NCBI GenBank assembly: GCA_946410555.1
Contig: CAMKAT010000002.1
Coordinates: forward strand, 45,235 to 109,234
Direction: 5' to 3'
Length of the DNA stretch: 64,000 bases
Source of the DNA: an uncultured Bacillales bacterium
GTDB lineage: Bacteria; Bacillota_I; Bacilli_A; RF39; UBA660
Part shown: positions 3,475 through 48,986 of the stretch, piece after piece
How positions within the stretch are numbered: the stretch's first letter is position 1
Layout: every line of letters begins with the position of its first letter
The notes under the pieces: generated by a model
The model's input: the letters and a program-made list of their open reading frames with translations, nothing else
The model's database searches: none
What the model was told of the DNA's origin: nothing
Position numbers and translations under genes: made by a program

Positions 3475-4974
3475 ATGAAAAAGATACTCGAAAGAGCGAA
3501 AAATATAAATATTTTATTCCTAATTATGTTAGGTTTTATAGTATATTGTTTATTTACAAATTTTGTTAATTTTGATAATGATTTATGGTTCATAATGGCA
3601 ACAGGAAGAAACATCTTAAATAATGGTATTCCTCACTTTGATGTATTAAGTATGCATAATGATTACTTAATAGTTACACAACAATGGTTAACTTCAGTAA
3701 TTTTCTTTTTTACTGCATTAAAACTTGGAGCAACTGGACTAGCAGTTTTAGTTTCAGTTATCTCATTTGCAGGTATTGCAGTTCTTTATAGATATAGTAA
3801 ATATTTAAGTAAAAATACTACAATTACAAGTTTATTATTAATACTTTATATTTATTTTTTTGTTAAAGGATTTACTACTTCAAGACCACAAATATTATCT
3901 TATTTAATATTTACTACTGAATTATTTTTAGCAGATAGATTTATTAATTCAAAGAATAAAAAGTATTTATACTTATTACCTATTCTTTCTCTTTTAGAAA
4001 TTAATTTACATGCATCTGTTTGGTTATTACAATTTTGTTTCTTAGGAGTTTTCTTAATTGAATTTATTAATATAAAAGAAATAAGAAGACCTTTATTAAT
4101 TACTTTAATTATTATGTTTATTTCAGGATTAATTAATCCTTACGGAATAAATGCTATTACATATGTATTTAAATCTTATGGTATAAATATTATTAATATT
4201 AATATTCAAGAAATGGCTACTGTATCAGTAGAATATTTCTTAGGAAAAGTTGTATTACTTACTCTATTCTTAGTTTTATTTATTTCTTCTTTATATAAGA
4301 AAATAAAATTAAGATATCTATTATTACTTGGAGGAACTTGTTATCTTGCATTAAGTCATTATAAGAGTTTCCCTTATTATGGAATTGCTTTTGTAATTAC
4401 AATGTCACAATTATTAAGTGGTATTAATTTAAAAGAAATTTATTTAAATATAGTTAATAAAATTAAAATTAAAAATGTAAAAAATATATTAGTTAAATTA
4501 TCTACTTATAGTTATAAGTATCTTAAATTAAGTTTGTTTGTAGTAGTACTTATTCTATTCGTTGAATCATATCAAATAGTTATTAAAGAATCTAATTTTG
4601 ATAATCCATTAGAAAGAGTTGTAGCTAATCTTAAGTTTGATGCTAAAACATATGATGTAACTGTTTATACAAACTTTATGGATGGTGGTTACCTTGAATG
4701 GAAAGGATTTAAACCATATATAGATCCACGTGCTGATGTTTTTATTAAAGCTACAAATAATAAGTTTGATTTACTAGATGAGGCTTTTAGTTTAAATACA
4801 AATGCTAATATTAAAAGATTTATAAGAAAATATAATTTTGATTATTATATTGTTGATCCAGAACAAGACAAATATTTATATAATTATCTTAAAGATGAAA
4901 TGAGTTATAAATATAAACAAATATATAGATCATATGGTGATGATGATAGAGCTCTATTTAAAAGGATTAATTAA
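3475..4974 (+). CDS. Polytopic membrane protein (10 or more TM helices) with a ~110-aa C-terminal soluble domain; possible GT-C-like glycosyltransferase or polymerase
   Basis: 499-aa hydrophobic ORF with RBS AGGGTGA. TAATG overlap with the downstream FAD oxidoreductase. No diagnostic motif was recognised. Confidence 0.4.
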   Translation: MKKILERAKNINILFLIMLGFIVYCLFTNFVNFDNDLWFIMATGRNILNNGIPHFDVLSMHNDYLIVTQQWLTSVIFFFTALKLGATGLAVLVSVISFAGIAVLYRYSKYLSKNTTITSLLLILYIYFFVKGFTTSRPQILSYLIFTTELFLADRFINSKNKKYLYLLPILSLLEINLHASVWLLQFCFLGVFLIEFINIKEIRRPLLITLIIMFISGLINPYGINAITYVFKSYGINIININIQEMATVSVEYFLGKVVLLTLFLVLFISSLYKKIKLRYLLLLGGTCYLALSHYKSFPYYGIAFVITMSQLLSGINLKEIYLNIVNKIKIKNVKNILVKLSTYSYKYLKLSLFVVVLILFVESYQIVIKESNFDNPLERVVANLKFDAKTYDVTVYTNFMDGGYLEWKGFKPYIDPRADVFIKATNNKFDLLDEAFSLNTNANIKRFIRKYNFDYYIVDPEQDKYLYNYLKDEMSYKYKQIYRSYGDDDRALFKRIN

Positions 4975-16395: not shown

Positions 16396-16737
16396 GAATA
16401 ATCTTATAAGCCATGTTCTGTACCTCTTACGAGGCGGTAAACATTTATCTAGCATTACTGCTCCTTATCTCCCTTATCATTCGTTCAATAAGACTCTCCT
16501 ACCAAAATTTGGATTTCTCACTTGCGGGGCTTACCACGTTCCACCTTAACCGTTTCCAGTTAAGCTCGTCTCTTTGGCGCTTTATGGCTACTATAACCAT
16601 GGTTAGGTTATCTCGCCGCCGTCAGTCTTACAACTGCCTAGGTTTTATCCTAGCACAAACACTACTTTCATCACAGAAAGTGTGAGCATGGACTTTCCTC
16701 AACACATATTTCAGCGCAGCGTTTACCCAGATTATTC
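16396..16737 (-). ncRNA. rnpB: RNase P RNA (bacterial, Firmicutes type-B-like)
   Basis: The minus strand carries GAGGAAAGTCCATGCTC (CR-I) and ACAGAACATGGCTTA (CR-V). P1 pairs GAATAATCT with AGATTATTC. The region is GC-enriched, has no real ORF and ends in a T-run. Confidence 0.9.
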
Positions 16738-43535: not shown

Positions 43536-46295
43536 CTACTTTTTCATAAATCCTCCGAAGAAACTTTTTTTCTTAGGAACTTCCTTGATATTGTTAACAG
43601 ATTTAACATACCATTCCATTATATCTTTAACAGATTTATTTCCATCTACTGCAGCTGGTAAAACATATTCTCTAATGAATGTTCTTCCATCTACTGAATC
43701 TGCTCTTGTTGAATCTTTTAAATAGATTCTAGAATCTAATGGGAATGCTTCTAAGATTTTATTATATTCAAGATAATCTAAGAATGTATATGGACTTCCA
43801 TCTCTTTTTTGAAGGACATTATCATCTTCGTCTTTAATTTGGAAATCAAAGATTTGAGGATCCATAGATACACCATTATATTTATCAATTATTTGTTGTT
43901 TTACTGGATCAACTTGTTTAACTGGTTCATTATTTGCAACAACTGCAACTGCTTCATCTTGAGTTAATTTTGAAGCATTTGGAACTTCAGTTTGTACTGG
44001 TTGAGCTTGAACTGGTTGAGCTTGAGTTTCAGTAATTTTATTTAAATCATTTCCAAGTTCAGATAATTCAATAGTTTTTTCATCTACATTGTTTTCAGCT
44101 TCTTCAATTTCTTTCATAATTGAATCGATAACACTTATTTCATCTTCTTCAGTAGATTGAGTAACTTCTGGAATTATTGGTTCACTTGGTTTTGTTTCTG
44201 GAATAACTTTAAGTATTTGAGTTTTATCAGTATCATCAGGAATAACTACATCCTCATGTGTTTCTTCAACTGGGGCTTGATAAACTTCAGTATCATTACT
44301 TGATTGAACTTCAACTTGACTATCATCTTCGATAGCAATATCAGTTGCTTCTGGAATTTCTACATTTGCTGGAGTTTCTACAACTTCGTCTTTAAATGCA
44401 GGTTCTTCTTTAACTTCTTCAACTGGTGCAGTAGTTTCTACTGGTGTTGGAACTTCATTTAATTCATTAAGATCTGCTGCTTGAACTTCTCCATTTACAT
44501 CATTTGTTGGAGCAATTGATACAGCTTCATCTTCATAAAGTGAAGTTTCTTTATCATTATTATCATATAAAACTGGGTCAGTTGCTAAAGCAGTAACAAC
44601 TTCAGGAGTTTCTGAAACAGGTTCTTCAACTGGAGGTACTACAGGTGTACTTTCTACAGGTGCTGGAGTTTCTACTACTGGAGTATTAACTACAATTGGT
44701 TCAGTTGGAACTTTTGGAGCAACTTGAGTAATATAAGCATCTTCACCAGGAAGACCAATACTTTCTTCTTGAACTGGAACTTCAGTTTCCACTACTGAAG
44801 TTTGTGCTACAGGAGCAACTGCTTGTTCTTGAACTGGAGTTTCAACTACTTGAGTTTCAACTTTTGGAACATCTACTTTAGCTTCTTCAACTTGTGTAGG
44901 TATTTCTTCTGGCATTAAAGCAGGTTCAATATCTTCTTCAATTTTATCAAATACAGGTTCAGGTAATTCATTAAAATTATCCTTTACAATAGGTTCAATT
45001 ACTTGAACACTTGGATCATTAGTTTTTAATGATTCATAATCAGTAGCTTTAACAGCTTCTTCATGGATTTGTTCTAGAGTACCAGCACCAAATGTAATAG
45101 CTGGTTGAATATAATTAGATGAAAGTAATGATTCAATACCATTTGTTTTAATATTACTTACTAATGATTTAGCAGCATCTGCAGCTTTTTCTAAAACATG
45201 TACCTTTTCAGGTTCTTCTAATTCTATTTCATTTTCGTTAACTATTTCATTTTCGTAAACTACTTCTTCATCATCTACTACACCAAATTCAACATTTAAT
45301 TCACTTTGTGCAAGTTCTGATGCGAATATATTTTCTAAATCTAGTGGAATTTTTTCTTCTTTAACTATTTTTTCAAAATTAGATGATAATGTTTCATAGA
45401 ATAAATCGTATTCATTAGATTTTTTAGCAAATACTTCTTTATATACTCTTTTTCTAGCTTCATCTTTATTAGACGCATTCTTAAGATATTCTACAACTGA
45501 AACACCATCAAATGTTTCGTCTGCTCCAAGTTCAATTAATGTATTATCTAATGCTTTAATTAATGTTGAACCAAAAAGATCACTAGTTCTTGTTCCATTA
45601 ATATCAATTAATGAATCATATCCAATTAAGTCTTCAATGTTAGCATTAAACATGTTTGGAGCTTTTATTTTATTTTTATAAACTTTATCTAATCTATTAA
45701 TTGCGTTAATAGTATCTTCTAAATCCATAGTAGGAACATGTAATTTAATTGCTTCAGTTGTTCCACTATTCATATTAACAGTCTTTGGAATTTCAATATC
45801 AAATGGAATATCATATTTTGTTAATTGATTATATAAAGATCTTGTAATACTGATAATATCACTAGACTCTACATTTAATGTAAGTATATGAACTGATTCA
45901 TCTTTTTGTGGATTATTTAAGATATCTCCACTTTTTAAAGATAGTGAATCAGGTCTAGAGTATAATGATTTTCTTAGGATAGCTGATATTTCTCTACTTT
46001 TTTGCTTTCTATCTTCATGATTTAATCCGGCAAATTGTAAAAAGGCATTTTTGCTATTTAAGTAATCAGTTTTTAATACTTTGTTAAGAAAATATACTAC
46101 TTCATCTTGATAGAAACCTTTTTTGTTATCTTCGTTGTATAAATCTATTTCTCTAAGCTTGTTTCCGTTGTTTGTATCTATAATTGAAAAATCACTGTTT
46201 TCATATTTAGACATGATTTTATCAACTAGTTTTTTAGAAACATCGACTTTAAGATTTCTTCTGAAGTTATCAATACTTATTGCCATATCAATCAT
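43536..46295 (-). CDS. Large acidic protein with a central P/V/E/T-rich disordered region, unknown function
   Basis: 919-aa ORF. It contains a 15-bp tandem duplication (ACTGGTTGAGCTTGA x2 near 43990-44025, encoding QAQPVQAQPV) and PVETP-type low complexity. The start may be ATG 46286. Confidence 0.5.
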   Translation of the reverse strand: MIDMAISIDNFRRNLKVDVSKKLVDKIMSKYENSDFSIIDTNNGNKLREIDLYNEDNKKGFYQDEVVYFLNKVLKTDYLNSKNAFLQFAGLNHEDRKQKSREISAILRKSLYSRPDSLSLKSGDILNNPQKDESVHILTLNVESSDIISITRSLYNQLTKYDIPFDIEIPKTVNMNSGTTEAIKLHVPTMDLEDTINAINRLDKVYKNKIKAPNMFNANIEDLIGYDSLIDINGTRTSDLFGSTLIKALDNTLIELGADETFDGVSVVEYLKNASNKDEARKRVYKEVFAKKSNEYDLFYETLSSNFEKIVKEEKIPLDLENIFASELAQSELNVEFGVVDDEEVVYENEIVNENEIELEEPEKVHVLEKAADAAKSLVSNIKTNGIESLLSSNYIQPAITFGAGTLEQIHEEAVKATDYESLKTNDPSVQVIEPIVKDNFNELPEPVFDKIEEDIEPALMPEEIPTQVEEAKVDVPKVETQVVETPVQEQAVAPVAQTSVVETEVPVQEESIGLPGEDAYITQVAPKVPTEPIVVNTPVVETPAPVESTPVVPPVEEPVSETPEVVTALATDPVLYDNNDKETSLYEDEAVSIAPTNDVNGEVQAADLNELNEVPTPVETTAPVEEVKEEPAFKDEVVETPANVEIPEATDIAIEDDSQVEVQSSNDTEVYQAPVEETHEDVVIPDDTDKTQILKVIPETKPSEPIIPEVTQSTEEDEISVIDSIMKEIEEAENNVDEKTIELSELGNDLNKITETQAQPVQAQPVQTEVPNASKLTQDEAVAVVANNEPVKQVDPVKQQIIDKYNGVSMDPQIFDFQIKDEDDNVLQKRDGSPYTFLDYLEYNKILEAFPLDSRIYLKDSTRADSVDGRTFIREYVLPAAVDGNKSVKDIMEWYVKSVNNIKEVPKKKSFFGGFMKK

Positions 46296-46379: not shown

Positions 46380-46607
46380 CTAATTGTATATTTTTTTGTT
46401 TAGGTCTAACCCTAAAAGTTGTAATTTAATGATGATAATTTTTATATCAGCATCCTTAAATCCCATAGTTTTTAATTTTTTTCTATTAAGTATCCACACA
46501 TCTCCAACGGTGTTTAGCCCTTGATCTCTTAACATTTGGCAAATATCAGATGATAGTTCAAGAGTTTTTAAATCATCATGCTCATAAATATTTATATTTT
46601 TAGCCAT
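46380..46607 (-). CDS. Stand-alone RNA polymerase alpha C-terminal-domain-like (helix-hairpin-helix) protein, 75 aa
   Basis: LELSSDICQMLRDQGLNTVGDVWILNRKKLKTMGFKDADIKIIIIKLQLLGLDL parallels the alpha-CTD pattern LeLSvRs.NcL...I.tvgdL......L....N.G.kS..EI...L...GL.L. Confidence 0.45.
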   Translation of the reverse strand: MAKNINIYEHDDLKTLELSSDICQMLRDQGLNTVGDVWILNRKKLKTMGFKDADIKIIIIKLQLLGLDLNKKIYN

Positions 46608-46690: not shown

Positions 46691-47461
46691 TTAGTTGTCA
46701 CTCTTATTTTTTGAAATCTTTGATTTTTGATAATTATAAATGTAATTTAAAAGGACTCTTTCAGGTAAAAATCTCATAAAGAATTTACCTATTCTTAAGA
46801 TTATACCTGGGATAATAATCATTTTTCCTTTAAACATAGAATCAATAGCATACTTAGCTACATATTCAGGAGTTAAAGGTTTAGTACTAAAAGTTCCTTT
46901 AGCTACTTTATTAAATTCTGTATCTACAGGTCCAGGACATAATGCACTTATTTGTACTTTAGATTTGTTTTGTCTTAATTCTTCGTTAATTGCTTCAGTA
47001 AGTCTTAAAACATAATTCTTTGTTGCATAATAAGTTGAAAGATTAGGTCCTGCAAGGAATCCTGCAGAAGAAGCTACATTAAGAATATATCCTTTATTCT
47101 TCTTTTTCATTCTAATTAAGAATTCTTTTGTTAATATATGAACTGCTTTAATATTAACATCTATCATTTCTAGTTCTCTATTTAAGTCTGTCTTATCAAA
47201 TTCTCCAAATAAACCAAAACCTGCATTATTAATTAATACATCAATAGACTCATCTTGAGTAATTTCTATTAGTTTAAACACATCTTCTGTTTTAGATACA
47301 TCAAGTGTTATTATTTCACTCTGATTCTTTAATTCTTTAGATAGCTCTTTTAGTCTATCTTCTCTCCTAGCAACAAGGATAGTGTTATATCCTAAGGAAT
47401 CTAAATACTTTGTTATTTCTCTTCCGATTCCCGAAGAAGCTCCAGTTATAAGTGCTTTCAT
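46691..47461 (-). CDS. Short-chain dehydrogenase/reductase (SDR) family oxidoreductase
   Basis: TGASSGIG, NNAG, and S...YYATK catalytic motif. TAATG overlap with the upstream 4-TM gene. Confidence 0.88.
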   Translation of the reverse strand: MKALITGASSGIGREITKYLDSLGYNTILVARREDRLKELSKELKNQSEIITLDVSKTEDVFKLIEITQDESIDVLINNAGFGLFGEFDKTDLNRELEMIDVNIKAVHILTKEFLIRMKKKNKGYILNVASSAGFLAGPNLSTYYATKNYVLRLTEAINEELRQNKSKVQISALCPGPVDTEFNKVAKGTFSTKPLTPEYVAKYAIDSMFKGKMIIIPGIILRIGKFFMRFLPERVLLNYIYNYQKSKISKNKSDN

Positions 47462-47982
47462 TATTTACCTCTTTTAAATATACTAAATATCTTAGCAATT
47501 CTTATTATTATATTATTTGCATTATTAACTGCGATTGGTTTAAATATAGCTTTTCCACCGACAGTAAATGATGAAATAATAGCTGCAATTACAATGCTTA
47601 CTAAAGTCTGACTAAATCCAAAAGTACTAGAAATAGATATTGCAAGTACTGCACCAATCGAACCAGATATAATACCTGAAACATCACCCACTACATCATT
47701 ACAAACAGATGAAATCTTAGATCCATTTTTAACAATAAATAAGCCAATTGGTCCTTCTTTTTTCTTCTTTGAATTAAGTGCATGGAATGTAGCTTCATCT
47801 CCAGAGATTGCAGAAGTTCCAATCATATCAAAAAGAATCCCTAATATGATTACACATATAAGAAGAATCCCTAATACAACATTATTTGCTTTCATGGTAA
47901 TTACATTAGATAAAGTACTAAATACTACTGATAAAACAAATGTAATTAAAAATATAGTTAATATCCAATTATCTTTTTTCAT
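47461..47982 (-). CDS. Small 4-TM membrane protein with lysine-rich loop and tail (DUF21/CNNM-TM-like by eye; candidate partner of the upstream ncRNA)
   Basis: Start at ATG 47982 behind AGGTGAGAG (MKKDNWIL...); 174 aa. Four hydrophobic helices, loop HALNSKKKKEG and tail IFKRGK. Confidence 0.55.
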   Translation of the reverse strand: MKKDNWILTIFLITFVLSVVFSTLSNVITMKANNVVLGILLICVIILGILFDMIGTSAISGDEATFHALNSKKKKEGPIGLFIVKNGSKISSVCNDVVGDVSGIISGSIGAVLAISISSTFGFSQTLVSIVIAAIISSFTVGGKAIFKPIAVNNANNIIIRIAKIFSIFKRGK

Positions 47983-48019
47983 ACTCTCACCTAGAATAAT
48001 TATACCAAATTTATTGCAT

Positions 48020-48055
48020 AAAAAAACTTTAATTCGTCTTTCCCCGTAATTAAAG
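48020..48055 (-). terminator. Intrinsic terminator ending the large ncRNA candidate
   Basis: Minus strand CTTTAATTaCG-GGGAAAGA-CGAATTAAAG followed by TTTTTTT. Confidence 0.7.
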
Positions 48056-48526
48056 TTCATTTGTATGGAATACCACAAATCAATTTTACGGCTTAGGTCG
48101 AGGTGAATTTCTCTTTCTAAAGCTTGAGATTACTCTCAAGTGCTTTCGCCTTGGTCTAGAAAACTACCTGTTACCAAATGTAGTTCCTCGATTACCACTT
48201 AGTCCGTACCTTAATACCCATGGTATCTACACGCTAGAGGTTTTCCCTAACAAAAGTGACTATTCTTATATGCTTTTGCATCAATGATTTCAATTTCTAT
48301 CCCTCATTAACACTCACATCATGTACGTTATTATATTACTTTTATTATTAAGTGACGCATCAGAAGGAATCACCTAAATGCCGTTTTAGACTATCCTTAA
48401 GATTTAAATTACTCACACACCCGAACTTGGGCAGAACAAGCATGTGTGTAAAGTGTCATTCGACAATTGATGGATTTTTAGCCCCACCTTCAAATAGTAT
48501 AATGACTAGCATAATGCTCCACACAT
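48020..48526 (-). ncRNA. Large (~0.5 kb) structured ncRNA candidate, class unassigned (OLE-like context)
   Basis: ORF-free and GC-enriched (23/60 and 27/60 G+C in two lines I counted). It has its own promoter and terminator. Nested helices 48520-48527/48441-48448 and 48501-48506/48455-48460, and a GUAA-capped helix at 48123-48140. The G-U pairs work only on the minus strand. Confidence 0.6.
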
Positions 48527-48532
48527 GACTAA

Positions 48533-48561
48533 AGTATAGCATATTTTAGTCAAAATATCAA
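48533..48561 (-). promoter_or_regulatory. Candidate sigma-A promoter of the large ncRNA
   Basis: TTGATA - 17 nt - TATACT on the minus strand, directly after the terminator hairpin of the upstream gene. Confidence 0.5.
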
Positions 48562-48596
48562 ATCGCACAAAAAATAAGAAAGTAATAAATACTTTC

Positions 48597-48986
48597 TTAT
48601 CTAAAGTTTCTAATTATCGAAGGAAGTTCAAATAATAGTATTAAAACTATAATAATTATAGCTATTACTAATATTTTAGTAACTTGCTTCTTTCTTTCTT
48701 CAGGGGTTTGAAAGCCTAACGTTTGATTTGTTTTGTTAAACTTCTCTTCATCAAAAGTTTTGTTCATTTCTTGCATAATATCTTTTGCATTTGTATTTTG
48801 AACAGGAATCTCTTGAGTTTTAGTATCAACACTCTTCTCTTCGATTGAATCATCTTTAAATTGAGCTTGAGATTTATTATCTTCTTCTAACTTTTTTAAA
48901 GCGTCTTCATCAGAGATAGCAATTGGTTTAACTGTTGTTGATAAATCAACCGTTATTCTTGTTACCTTATTATTCTCGTTACTCAT
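48597..48986 (-). CDS. Tail-anchored small protein (129 aa; acidic N-terminus, C-terminal TM)
   Basis: ORF 8 nt downstream of the pyrophosphatase gene, with a hairpin terminator overlapping its stop. Confidence 0.5.
   Translation of the reverse strand: MSNENNKVTRITVDLSTTVKPIAISDEDALKKLEEDNKSQAQFKDDSIEEKSVDTKTQEIPVQNTNAKDIMQEMNKTFDEEKFNKTNQTLGFQTPEERKKQVTKILVIAIIIIVLILLFELPSIIRNFR

Follow-up and report, generated by a model that had tools for sequence, protein, structure and literature searches.

We analyzed a stretch of 64,000 nucleotides (nt) from an uncultured Bacillales bacterium (GenBank assembly GCA_946410555.1, contig CAMKAT010000002.1, positions 45,235 to 109,234), which we will call the window, and found that it almost certainly contains an ole-oapA locus: judging from its sequence, the locus encodes a short OLE RNA of the published "variant 2" type together with OapA, a CNNM-like membrane protein with four helices that, as far as is known, is found wherever OLE is. 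The RNA is of this type because it is without the stems P7 and P8. This short form of OLE has already been published; the locus is real but not new. A preliminary description of the window had offered two readings, a shortened and divergent OLE/OapA locus or a large noncoding RNA of a new class. The former is right, as shown by the match to the OLE family (RF01071 in Rfam) and by the traits of OapA in the protein encoded downstream, while the latter is excluded by the end-to-end match to RF01071. That description had also foreseen that a confident match to an ordinary known family would remove the novelty, and the OLE match does so. All coordinates below are positions in the window, and ole, oapA, and the neighboring genes are all on the minus strand.

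Identity and fold of the RNA

When the window was scanned with Rfam, as had been proposed, RF01071 matched positions 48538 to 48049 along its full length (model positions 1 to 616 in 490 nt), with a score of 227.7 bits, compared to a threshold of 50, and an E value of 6.7e-63. The scan of the whole window gave just three matches: this OLE RNA, a tRNA, and a class B RNase P RNA, which had already been recognized elsewhere in the window and lies at 16402 to 16734. ROOL, GOLLD, raiA, HEARO, 6S, and tmRNA had no match at the gathering threshold anywhere in the window. From 47900 to 48700, with E values of up to 1 considered, no Rfam family besides OLE and snoZ112 was found, and we rejected the snoZ112 match (23.6 bits, versus a threshold of 40) as chance.

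The near-invariant sequence blocks of OLE are all present in the window: the L4 loop (CUAAAAAU), the L5 loop (GCCCA), the L6 loop (GGCAU), GGACUAAGUGGUAAUC, and GACCUAAGCCGUAAAAUU are each invariant, or nearly so, across an alignment of 18 short OLEs (described below). Full-length OLE measures about 600 nt and has P7, P8, and a P9 that forms a long arch; the 490-nt RNA does not have this architecture and is therefore a variant and not the full-length form.

We then scanned species-representative genomes with the protein encoded downstream, which identified 80 loci, and ran Rfam on 40 of them. In all 40, OLE was directly upstream of the OapA homolog. These RNAs fall into three groups. The full-length group, from Oscillospiraceae and Clostridium, has lengths of 600 to 692 nt and scores of 388 to 550 bits (two are lower, at 317 and 358 bits). 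An intermediate group, from three uncultured Clostridia, has lengths of 575 to 578 nt and scores of 298 to 345 bits. The short group, with 481 to 535 nt and 204 to 241 bits, is from metagenome-assembled genomes (MAGs) that are titled Bacilli, Mollicutes, Tenericutes, or Erysipelotrichaceae bacterium. The RNA in the window (490 nt, 227.7 bits) belongs with the short group. Its nearest relatives are from two Bacilli MAGs, one of them titled goat rumen, with OapA proteins that are 85% identical; more broadly, the genomes nearest to the window are uncultured rumen and gut MAGs.

To describe the fold, we aligned 18 short OLEs with MAFFT and projected the Rfam structure onto the alignment. In the RNA from the window, 95 of the 105 projected pairs are canonical. 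Across the alignment, 86.8% of the cells are paired, versus 37 to 43% if the partners are slid by 1 to 3 columns. The preliminary description had asked for a covariation analysis, and 54 of the 105 modeled pairs have changes on both sides; none of 500 shuffles reached the observed values. RNAalifold, run without the Rfam structure, recovered the same helices and, in addition, P1, P2, and a helix like P3, all three of which show compensatory changes. The names of the stems were assigned from published text (PMC11332333 and PMC12265935, both cited here and below for the parts of their text that were available) and from loop sequences; the names P12.2, P13, and P14 are from PMC7936274.

The 5' strand of P1 (CAUGUGUGGA, 48518 to 48527) pairs over a long range with a partner at 48058 to 48069 (GUGUGG with CCAUAC; RNAalifold columns 16 to 22 and 540 to 546). 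The 5' strand of P2 (UAUGCUAG, 48506 to 48513), which includes a CUAG palindrome, forms eight pairs with CUAGCGUG at 48230 to 48237, and in RNAalifold's analysis of the 18 short OLEs, one of these pairs carries nine two-sided changes. Palindromes in or near P2 are reported to be sites for OapA (PMC12265935). The P4 hairpin (48469 to 48488) has a helix that is 100% paired in the alignment and an invariant A-rich loop, CUAAAAAU; in published structures, the A-rich L4 loop is a bridge between the two RNAs of a dimer (PMC12265935). The P5/P5.1 hairpin (48408 to 48453), with the invariant loop GCCCA, and the P6/P6.1 hairpin (48359 to 48403), with the loop AAACGGCAU, were both identified from the model alignment and from covariation. 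The GGC of the P6 loop is complementary to the GCC of L5, and L5 and L6 are a kissing pair in published OLE dimers (PMC12265935).

At the place of P7 and P8, there is an A/U-rich, single-stranded linker of 32 nt (48327 to 48358): segments of 44 and 36 positions in the model are reduced to 13 and 15 nt. P9 (48269 to 48320) is truncated. It retains the basal stem and the internal GGAU/UGAAA motif, with nine P9 pairs that have two-sided changes, but the distal arm of about 50 nt is replaced by A-GAAA-U (in the model alignment, [50] becomes [4]). The four-way junction region (48098 to 48191) includes P12.2 (UCGAGG with CCUCGA), P13 (with a GUAA tetraloop and a bulge), and P14/P14.1 (with a GUAA tetraloop). 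P13 in the window retains the GNRA loop and the bulge that OapB recognizes.

The preliminary description had included a fold made by hand, and parts of it stand: the helix capped by GUAA is P13, and the pairing of UCGAGG with CCUCGA is P12.2. Parts of its long-range pairing had no support from covariation. In particular, we rejected the helix of AUGUGUG with CACACAU: covariation places AUGUGUG in P1, with the 3'-terminal CCAUACA, while the CACACAU strand pairs with a downstream GUGUGUG within the P5 hairpin.

The alignment also bears on where the RNA begins. The -10 box of the promoter (48533 to 48538), which occupies the first seven columns in all 18 loci, aligns to positions 1 to 7 of the Rfam model. 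Therefore, the 5' end of the Rfam model is promoter DNA and not RNA.

OapA and the layout of the locus

The gene downstream of the RNA (47461 to 47982) encodes a four-helix membrane protein of 173 amino acids (aa), with DVVGD at residues 96 to 100 and KKKK at residues 73 to 76. The preliminary description gave its length as 174 aa, which is off by one, but was correct that its stop codon and the start of an SDR gene overlap by one base (TAATG). It had also likened this small protein, with its four transmembrane helices, to OapA, which agrees with the four predicted helices, the DxxxD motif, the KKKK loop, and a predicted fold like that of CNNM/CorB. By synteny, motifs, and predicted fold, the 173-aa product is OapA; we relied on these kinds of evidence because searches of families and of PDB sequences were empty (a profile search of PDB sequences with the 173-aa protein gave no match).

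The protein has 1,822 homologs in the database, and some of these have a precomputed match to PF01595 or a CorB-type name. Compared to 17 homologs that were defined by synteny, which lie beside full-length, intermediate, and short OLEs, 21 positions are invariant. D96-V-V-G-D100, which is the DxxxD motif, is within an invariant C-N-D-V-x-G-D block and is found in the 17 synteny-defined homologs and in 53 database homologs; DxxxD has been described as distinctive of OapA (PMC11332333). Four hydrophobic segments are at approximately residues 7 to 25, 36 to 54, 97 to 119, and 123 to 141, and the AlphaFold model (pLDDT of 84.4) has long helices at 6 to 31, 34 to 60, 87 to 121, and 125 to 153. A positively charged loop that connects the two pairs of helices, NSKKKKEG (residues 70 to 77), is probably cytoplasmic. 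Overall, the protein contains 16 lysines and arginines versus 7 aspartates and glutamates.

When the AlphaFold model was compared to the PDB with Foldseek, the best matches were MtCorB (7M1T and 7M1U, with a probability of 1.00 and a TM-score of about 0.5) and the transmembrane domain of CorC (7CFF, with TM-scores of 0.50 and 0.54). Fernando and Breaker give DxxxD, four helices, and a match to 7M1U as the traits of OapA, and the published structural match of OapA from H. halodurans is also CorB 7M1U (PMC11332333). As far as the predicted structure can tell, then, the closest known structures are the transmembrane domains of the CNNM/CorB/CorC/MpfA family of Mg2+ transporters (PF01595). OapA differs from these transporters in that it lacks their CBS and CorC_HlyC domains, is built of four helices instead of three, and contains DxxxD, which is not in CNNM domains.

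The RNA lies in a gap (47983 to 48596) that was described as having no open reading frame (ORF) of at least 60 aa. This is so, except for a TTG-started extension of the downstream gene; besides this extension, the gap contains only ORFs of 58 and 31 aa, both on the plus strand. The extended form, a 205-aa ORF at 47461 to 48078, was rejected as a mechanical extension from TTG that runs into the RNA. The true start of oapA is the ATG at 47982, which has AGGUGAG as a Shine-Dalgarno sequence and gives an N terminus that aligns with homologs. This start is 66 nt beyond the end of the Rfam match to OLE. Counts of G+C in the preliminary description were exact (23/60 at 48081 to 48140 and 27/60 at 48181 to 48240). 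The RNA as a whole is 35.9% G+C versus 26.1% for the window, and just 18 of 1,271 sliding windows of 490 nt reach this G+C content, with the highest over RNase P.

The promoter that had been proposed for the RNA was found at 48561 to 48533: TTGATA, a 17-nt spacer, and TATACT, with 10 of 12 matches and a TG before the -10 box. An equivalent promoter (TTGACA-17-TGnTATAAT) is upstream of OLE in all 18 short-OLE loci. The proposed intrinsic terminator was borne out by folding: after the RNA, there is an A/U-rich hairpin of 12 to 13 bp (48057 to 48027; -11 kcal/mol; z of -5.35; none of 200 shuffles were as good) and then U7 (the entire element is at 48020 to 48057). A consensus terminator scan found no terminator here because the stem is A/U rich, with fewer than the three G-C pairs that the scan's rule demands. 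A second, similar hairpin (48568 to 48602; 13 bp; -12.6 kcal/mol; z of -5.38), followed by UUUUUU, overlaps the TAA stop codon (48599 to 48597) of the 129-aa gene upstream. Because this hairpin ends the upstream gene, the ole unit is bracketed by terminators. Between ole and oapA (47986 to 48007), a candidate promoter for oapA was read from the sequence: an extended -10 element, TGGTATAAT (48007 to 47999), precedes the AGGUGAG (47992 to 47986).

The arrangement of ole and oapA differs among the 18 short-OLE loci. In 14 of them, the ribosome-binding site of oapA is 7 to 27 nt past OLE, with no terminator between; therefore, ole and oapA must be co-transcribed there. A terminator hairpin with a U-run, along with a second extended -10 promoter, lies between ole and oapA only in the window and in loci L001, L002, and L014. 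These are also the only loci with the gene order pyrophosphatase, 129-aa gene, ole, oapA, SDR, 75-aa gene, 919-aa gene, and the only ones in which SDR and oapA were seen to be linked.

We also made some observations about nearby genes and about other RNAs. A dltE neighbor is reported to be common near ole (PMC12265935), and the SDR gene (46691 to 47461) might be such a gene, but this is only a lead, as its matches are to generic SDRs. Between the SDR gene and the 919-aa gene is a 75-aa ORF (46380 to 46607) with no family match; over its N-terminal 50 residues, it shows 96% identity in L001 and L002. The 919-aa ORF (43536 to 46295) has no match in Pfam; its N-terminal portion (about 464 aa) is about 50% identical in L001 and L002, and the remainder is an acidic, low-complexity sequence rich in proline, valine, and glutamate, with a local peak in G+C near 44.35 kb. 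Just upstream of ole, the 129-aa protein (48597 to 48986) has one C-terminal hydrophobic segment and is 64% identical in L002; it had only sub-threshold matches to families (EssA-like and MacP-like). The RNase P RNA, on the minus strand, scores 271.4 bits and is overlapped by mechanical ORFs on both strands. Finally, in L040, an L31-Firmicutes ribosomal-protein leader is found downstream of oapA (3573 to 3603 of that locus, plus strand), at 34.8 bits, which is just above the threshold.

Alternative explanations and proposed role

We considered whether the region might encode a large structured RNA of a class not yet described, with no relationship to OLE beyond a similar gene context. In favor of this, the RNA falls 126 positions short of the OLE model and scores fewer than half as many bits as full-length members do. 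However, the match spans model positions 1 to 616 with an E value of 7e-63; all of the conserved OLE blocks are present; the scores grade from the short forms through about 300 to 345 bits and up to 550 bits, beside homologous oapA genes; no other Rfam family reaches its threshold; and covariation rules out an artifact of composition. We consider the chance of a new class to be negligible. It is hardly conceivable, too, that the gap is there to encode small proteins. There is a 58-aa ORF on the plus strand (48352 to 48528), but L001 and L002, the closest relatives, do not preserve this antisense ORF, the longest ORFs of the 18 sequences lie in varying frames and positions, and the substitutions compensate for each other within pairs instead of following a codon pattern.

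Another explanation is that the RNA does not stand alone but functions chiefly in cis, regulating the expression of oapA as a long structured leader. The co-transcription of OLE and oapA in 14 of 18 loci fits with this. But a leader would not account for the terminator and separate extended -10 promoter between the genes in the window and in the three loci most closely related to it, a conserved fold of 480 nt with dimer and protein sites is far more than a leader needs, and in H. halodurans, the processed OLE RNA, with about 630 nt, is abundant and forms a ribonucleoprotein (RNP) (PMC9723947). We think that a leader is very unlikely. Similarly improbable is that the RNA is a decaying remnant of OLE in a reduced genome, which would still be recognizable but would not function. 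Several substructures are gone, including a dimer contact, and rare, seemingly defective ole genes, as well as reduced genomes, have been reported for these clades (PMC11332333). Against decay, the short architecture, the promoter, and about 190 invariant columns are common to 18 species-level genomes; the helices are maintained by compensatory changes; oapA is intact, with all of its invariant residues present; and the deletions are clean (a linker or a GNRA cap) and not scattered damage.

Some observations weigh against an ole-oapA locus with a variant 2 RNA. Even in model species, to our knowledge, it has yet to be established what OLE does biochemically, and we infer the transcript ends, the localization to the membrane, the binding of OapA, and dimerization. 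The 173-aa protein had no match in Pfam or NCBIfam at normal thresholds. In the comparison to OapA and CNNM that the preliminary description called for, the predicted fold and the motifs of OapA agreed, but the sequence match to PF01595 (CNNM) was below threshold, with an E value of 9.7. The range of scores published for variant 2 (235 to 310 bits, as given in the available text) is from another covariance model, and the Rfam score of 227.7 bits cannot be placed on that scale. Also, the kinship of the host was judged from the NCBI titles of the nearest genomes.

If the locus is an ole-oapA locus, then OLE would be transcribed from its own sigma-A-type promoter, starting about 7 nt past the -10 box, near 48526. 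Transcription would end at least partly at the hairpin and U7 at 48057 to 48020, so that OLE would be made as an RNA of its own, about 0.5 kb long, although some transcripts may read through into oapA. oapA itself seems to be transcribed from its own extended -10 promoter and to be translationally coupled to the SDR gene. By analogy with OLE from Halalkalibacterium and Clostridium, the RNA would fold into a 5' domain (P3 to P9) and a 3' domain (P1, P2, and P10 to P15); OapA may bind palindromic sites near P2 and P4a and tether the RNA at the membrane; and a second copy of the RNA may be paired with the first via the A-rich L4 loop and the kissing L5 and L6 loops. Any dimerization of the RNA in the window would rest on the L4 and L5/L6 contacts alone, as this RNA has neither the P9 arch nor the kissing loop that the arch bears. 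In other species, the OLE complex helps cells to tolerate cold, alcohols, and excess Mg2+ and to grow on poor carbon sources, and by the same analogy, the complex might contribute to stress and divalent-cation (Mg2+) homeostasis.

Few bacterial RNAs as large as OLE are still without a known biochemical function. For genome annotation, the locus is routine, as a standard Rfam scan detects it. The form with 480 to 490 nt keeps L4, L5, L6, P1 to P3, and the P12.2 to P15 junction while dropping P7, P8, and the P9 arch, and it marks which parts are dispensable. Short OLEs are also a smaller construct for structural and binding work, and comparing loci in which ole and oapA are fused to loci in which they are separated by a terminator could show if co-transcription matters for RNP assembly.

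Comparison with other OLE RNAs

As a full-length reference, we used OLE from Clostridium sp. KNHs214 (L073; 609 nt and 549.6 bits). Compared to this reference, the RNA in the window is missing two hairpins (model positions 199 to 241 and 249 to 272), the distal 50 nt or so of the P9 stem (model positions 309 to 358, approximately), and a small hairpin (model positions 424 to 435). In the published numbering, as far as the available text gives it, the two hairpins correspond to P7 and P8, and the long stem corresponds to P9. More broadly, full-length OLEs (RF01071; from H. halodurans, Clostridium acetobutylicum, and C. botulinum, for example) share with the window the fold of P1 to P6, the base of P9, and P10 to P15; the L4, L5, and L6 loops; the P12.2/P13/P14 junction with its two GNRA loops; OapA as the partner; and a promoter of their own. 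They differ in having about 577 to 690 nt, with P7, P8, the P9 arch, and the hairpin at 424 to 435, versus 490 nt without any of these. The P9 arch of full-length OLE bears a GGCC or GAUC kissing loop (bridge B3 of the cryo-electron microscopy [cryo-EM] dimer), and there is none in the window. Also, ole of H. halodurans is inside a large operon (PMC9723947), unlike ole in the window.

Of the 18 short OLEs, 13 have an arm of P9 that is trimmed to 6 to 8 nt, and the RNA in the window is one of them (its apical region of P9 is at 48288 to 48303). Eleven of these 13 have A-GNRA-U, with GAAA, GCAA, GUAA, or GUGA as the tetraloop. A long P9 arm with a GAUC palindrome is kept in three short OLEs, from L040 (approximately 2690 to 2735), L024 (approximately 2470 to 2510), and L014. 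One short OLE has UAGUACUA at P9, and there is a GUAC palindrome in L002. The intermediate and full-length forms that we checked have GGCC as the P9 loop. Covariation of GGCC and GAUC was reported by Kretsch et al., and we see the same switch across forms.

The contacts in the cryo-EM dimers include a kissing interaction of palindromic loops on the long P9 arms. Lyon and Breaker explained the loss of P7 and P8 by these stems not being dimer contacts (PMC12265935). Because the P9 loop is a dimer contact, its loss is at odds with this explanation; in one cryo-EM study, the P7 loop is also part of a dimer bridge. The other dimer contacts are invariant in the 18 short OLEs, namely L4 (CUAAAAAU) and the complementary loops L5 (GCCCA) and L6 (GGCAU). 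One tentative idea, which we think is more doubtful than not, is that, in this clade, the short OLE represents a naturally minimal form that lost P7 and the P9 arch, with GNRA instead, and that in the rumen subclade, ole became a transcription unit apart from oapA. If this is true, then either the arch is dispensable for the core function or the GNRA cap makes another contact.

Fernando and Breaker described two shortened variants of OLE (mSphere 2024, PMC11332333). Variant 1 has shorter P7 to P9 stems and is commonest in TANB77, while variant 2 RNAs "entirely lack P7 and P8" and are common in RF39. TANB77 and RF39 are uncultured gut symbionts that have reduced genomes and are largely without OapB and OapC (PMC11332333). 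Variant 1 is likewise a shortened OLE of reduced-genome gut bacteria, but it keeps shortened forms of P7, P8, and P9, and the RNA in the window has none of these. Instead, the intermediate RNAs L010, L015, and L018 (575 to 578 nt, 298 to 345 bits) fit variant 1, with P9 arms of 51 to 53 nt and a GGCC loop.

As for variant 2, the available text of PMC11332333 does not mention a short P9 with a GNRA-type cap, nor a terminator and second promoter between ole and oapA, and its supplement has no drawing or text about P9 in variant 2; the published consensus figure may show a short P9. In other respects, the RNA in the window is like variant 2 as it is described there. P7 and P8 are wholly absent, most of the highly conserved nucleotides of OLE are kept, and the score against the full-length OLE model is low. 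In both, oapA is immediately downstream. The hosts of variant 2 are uncultured Bacilli from the gut or rumen, with small, AT-rich genomes, and judging by the titles of the nearest genomes and by its G+C content, the window is probably from a similar host. Overall, going by its sequence, the RNA in the window fits variant 2 in its architecture and probably also in its kind of host.

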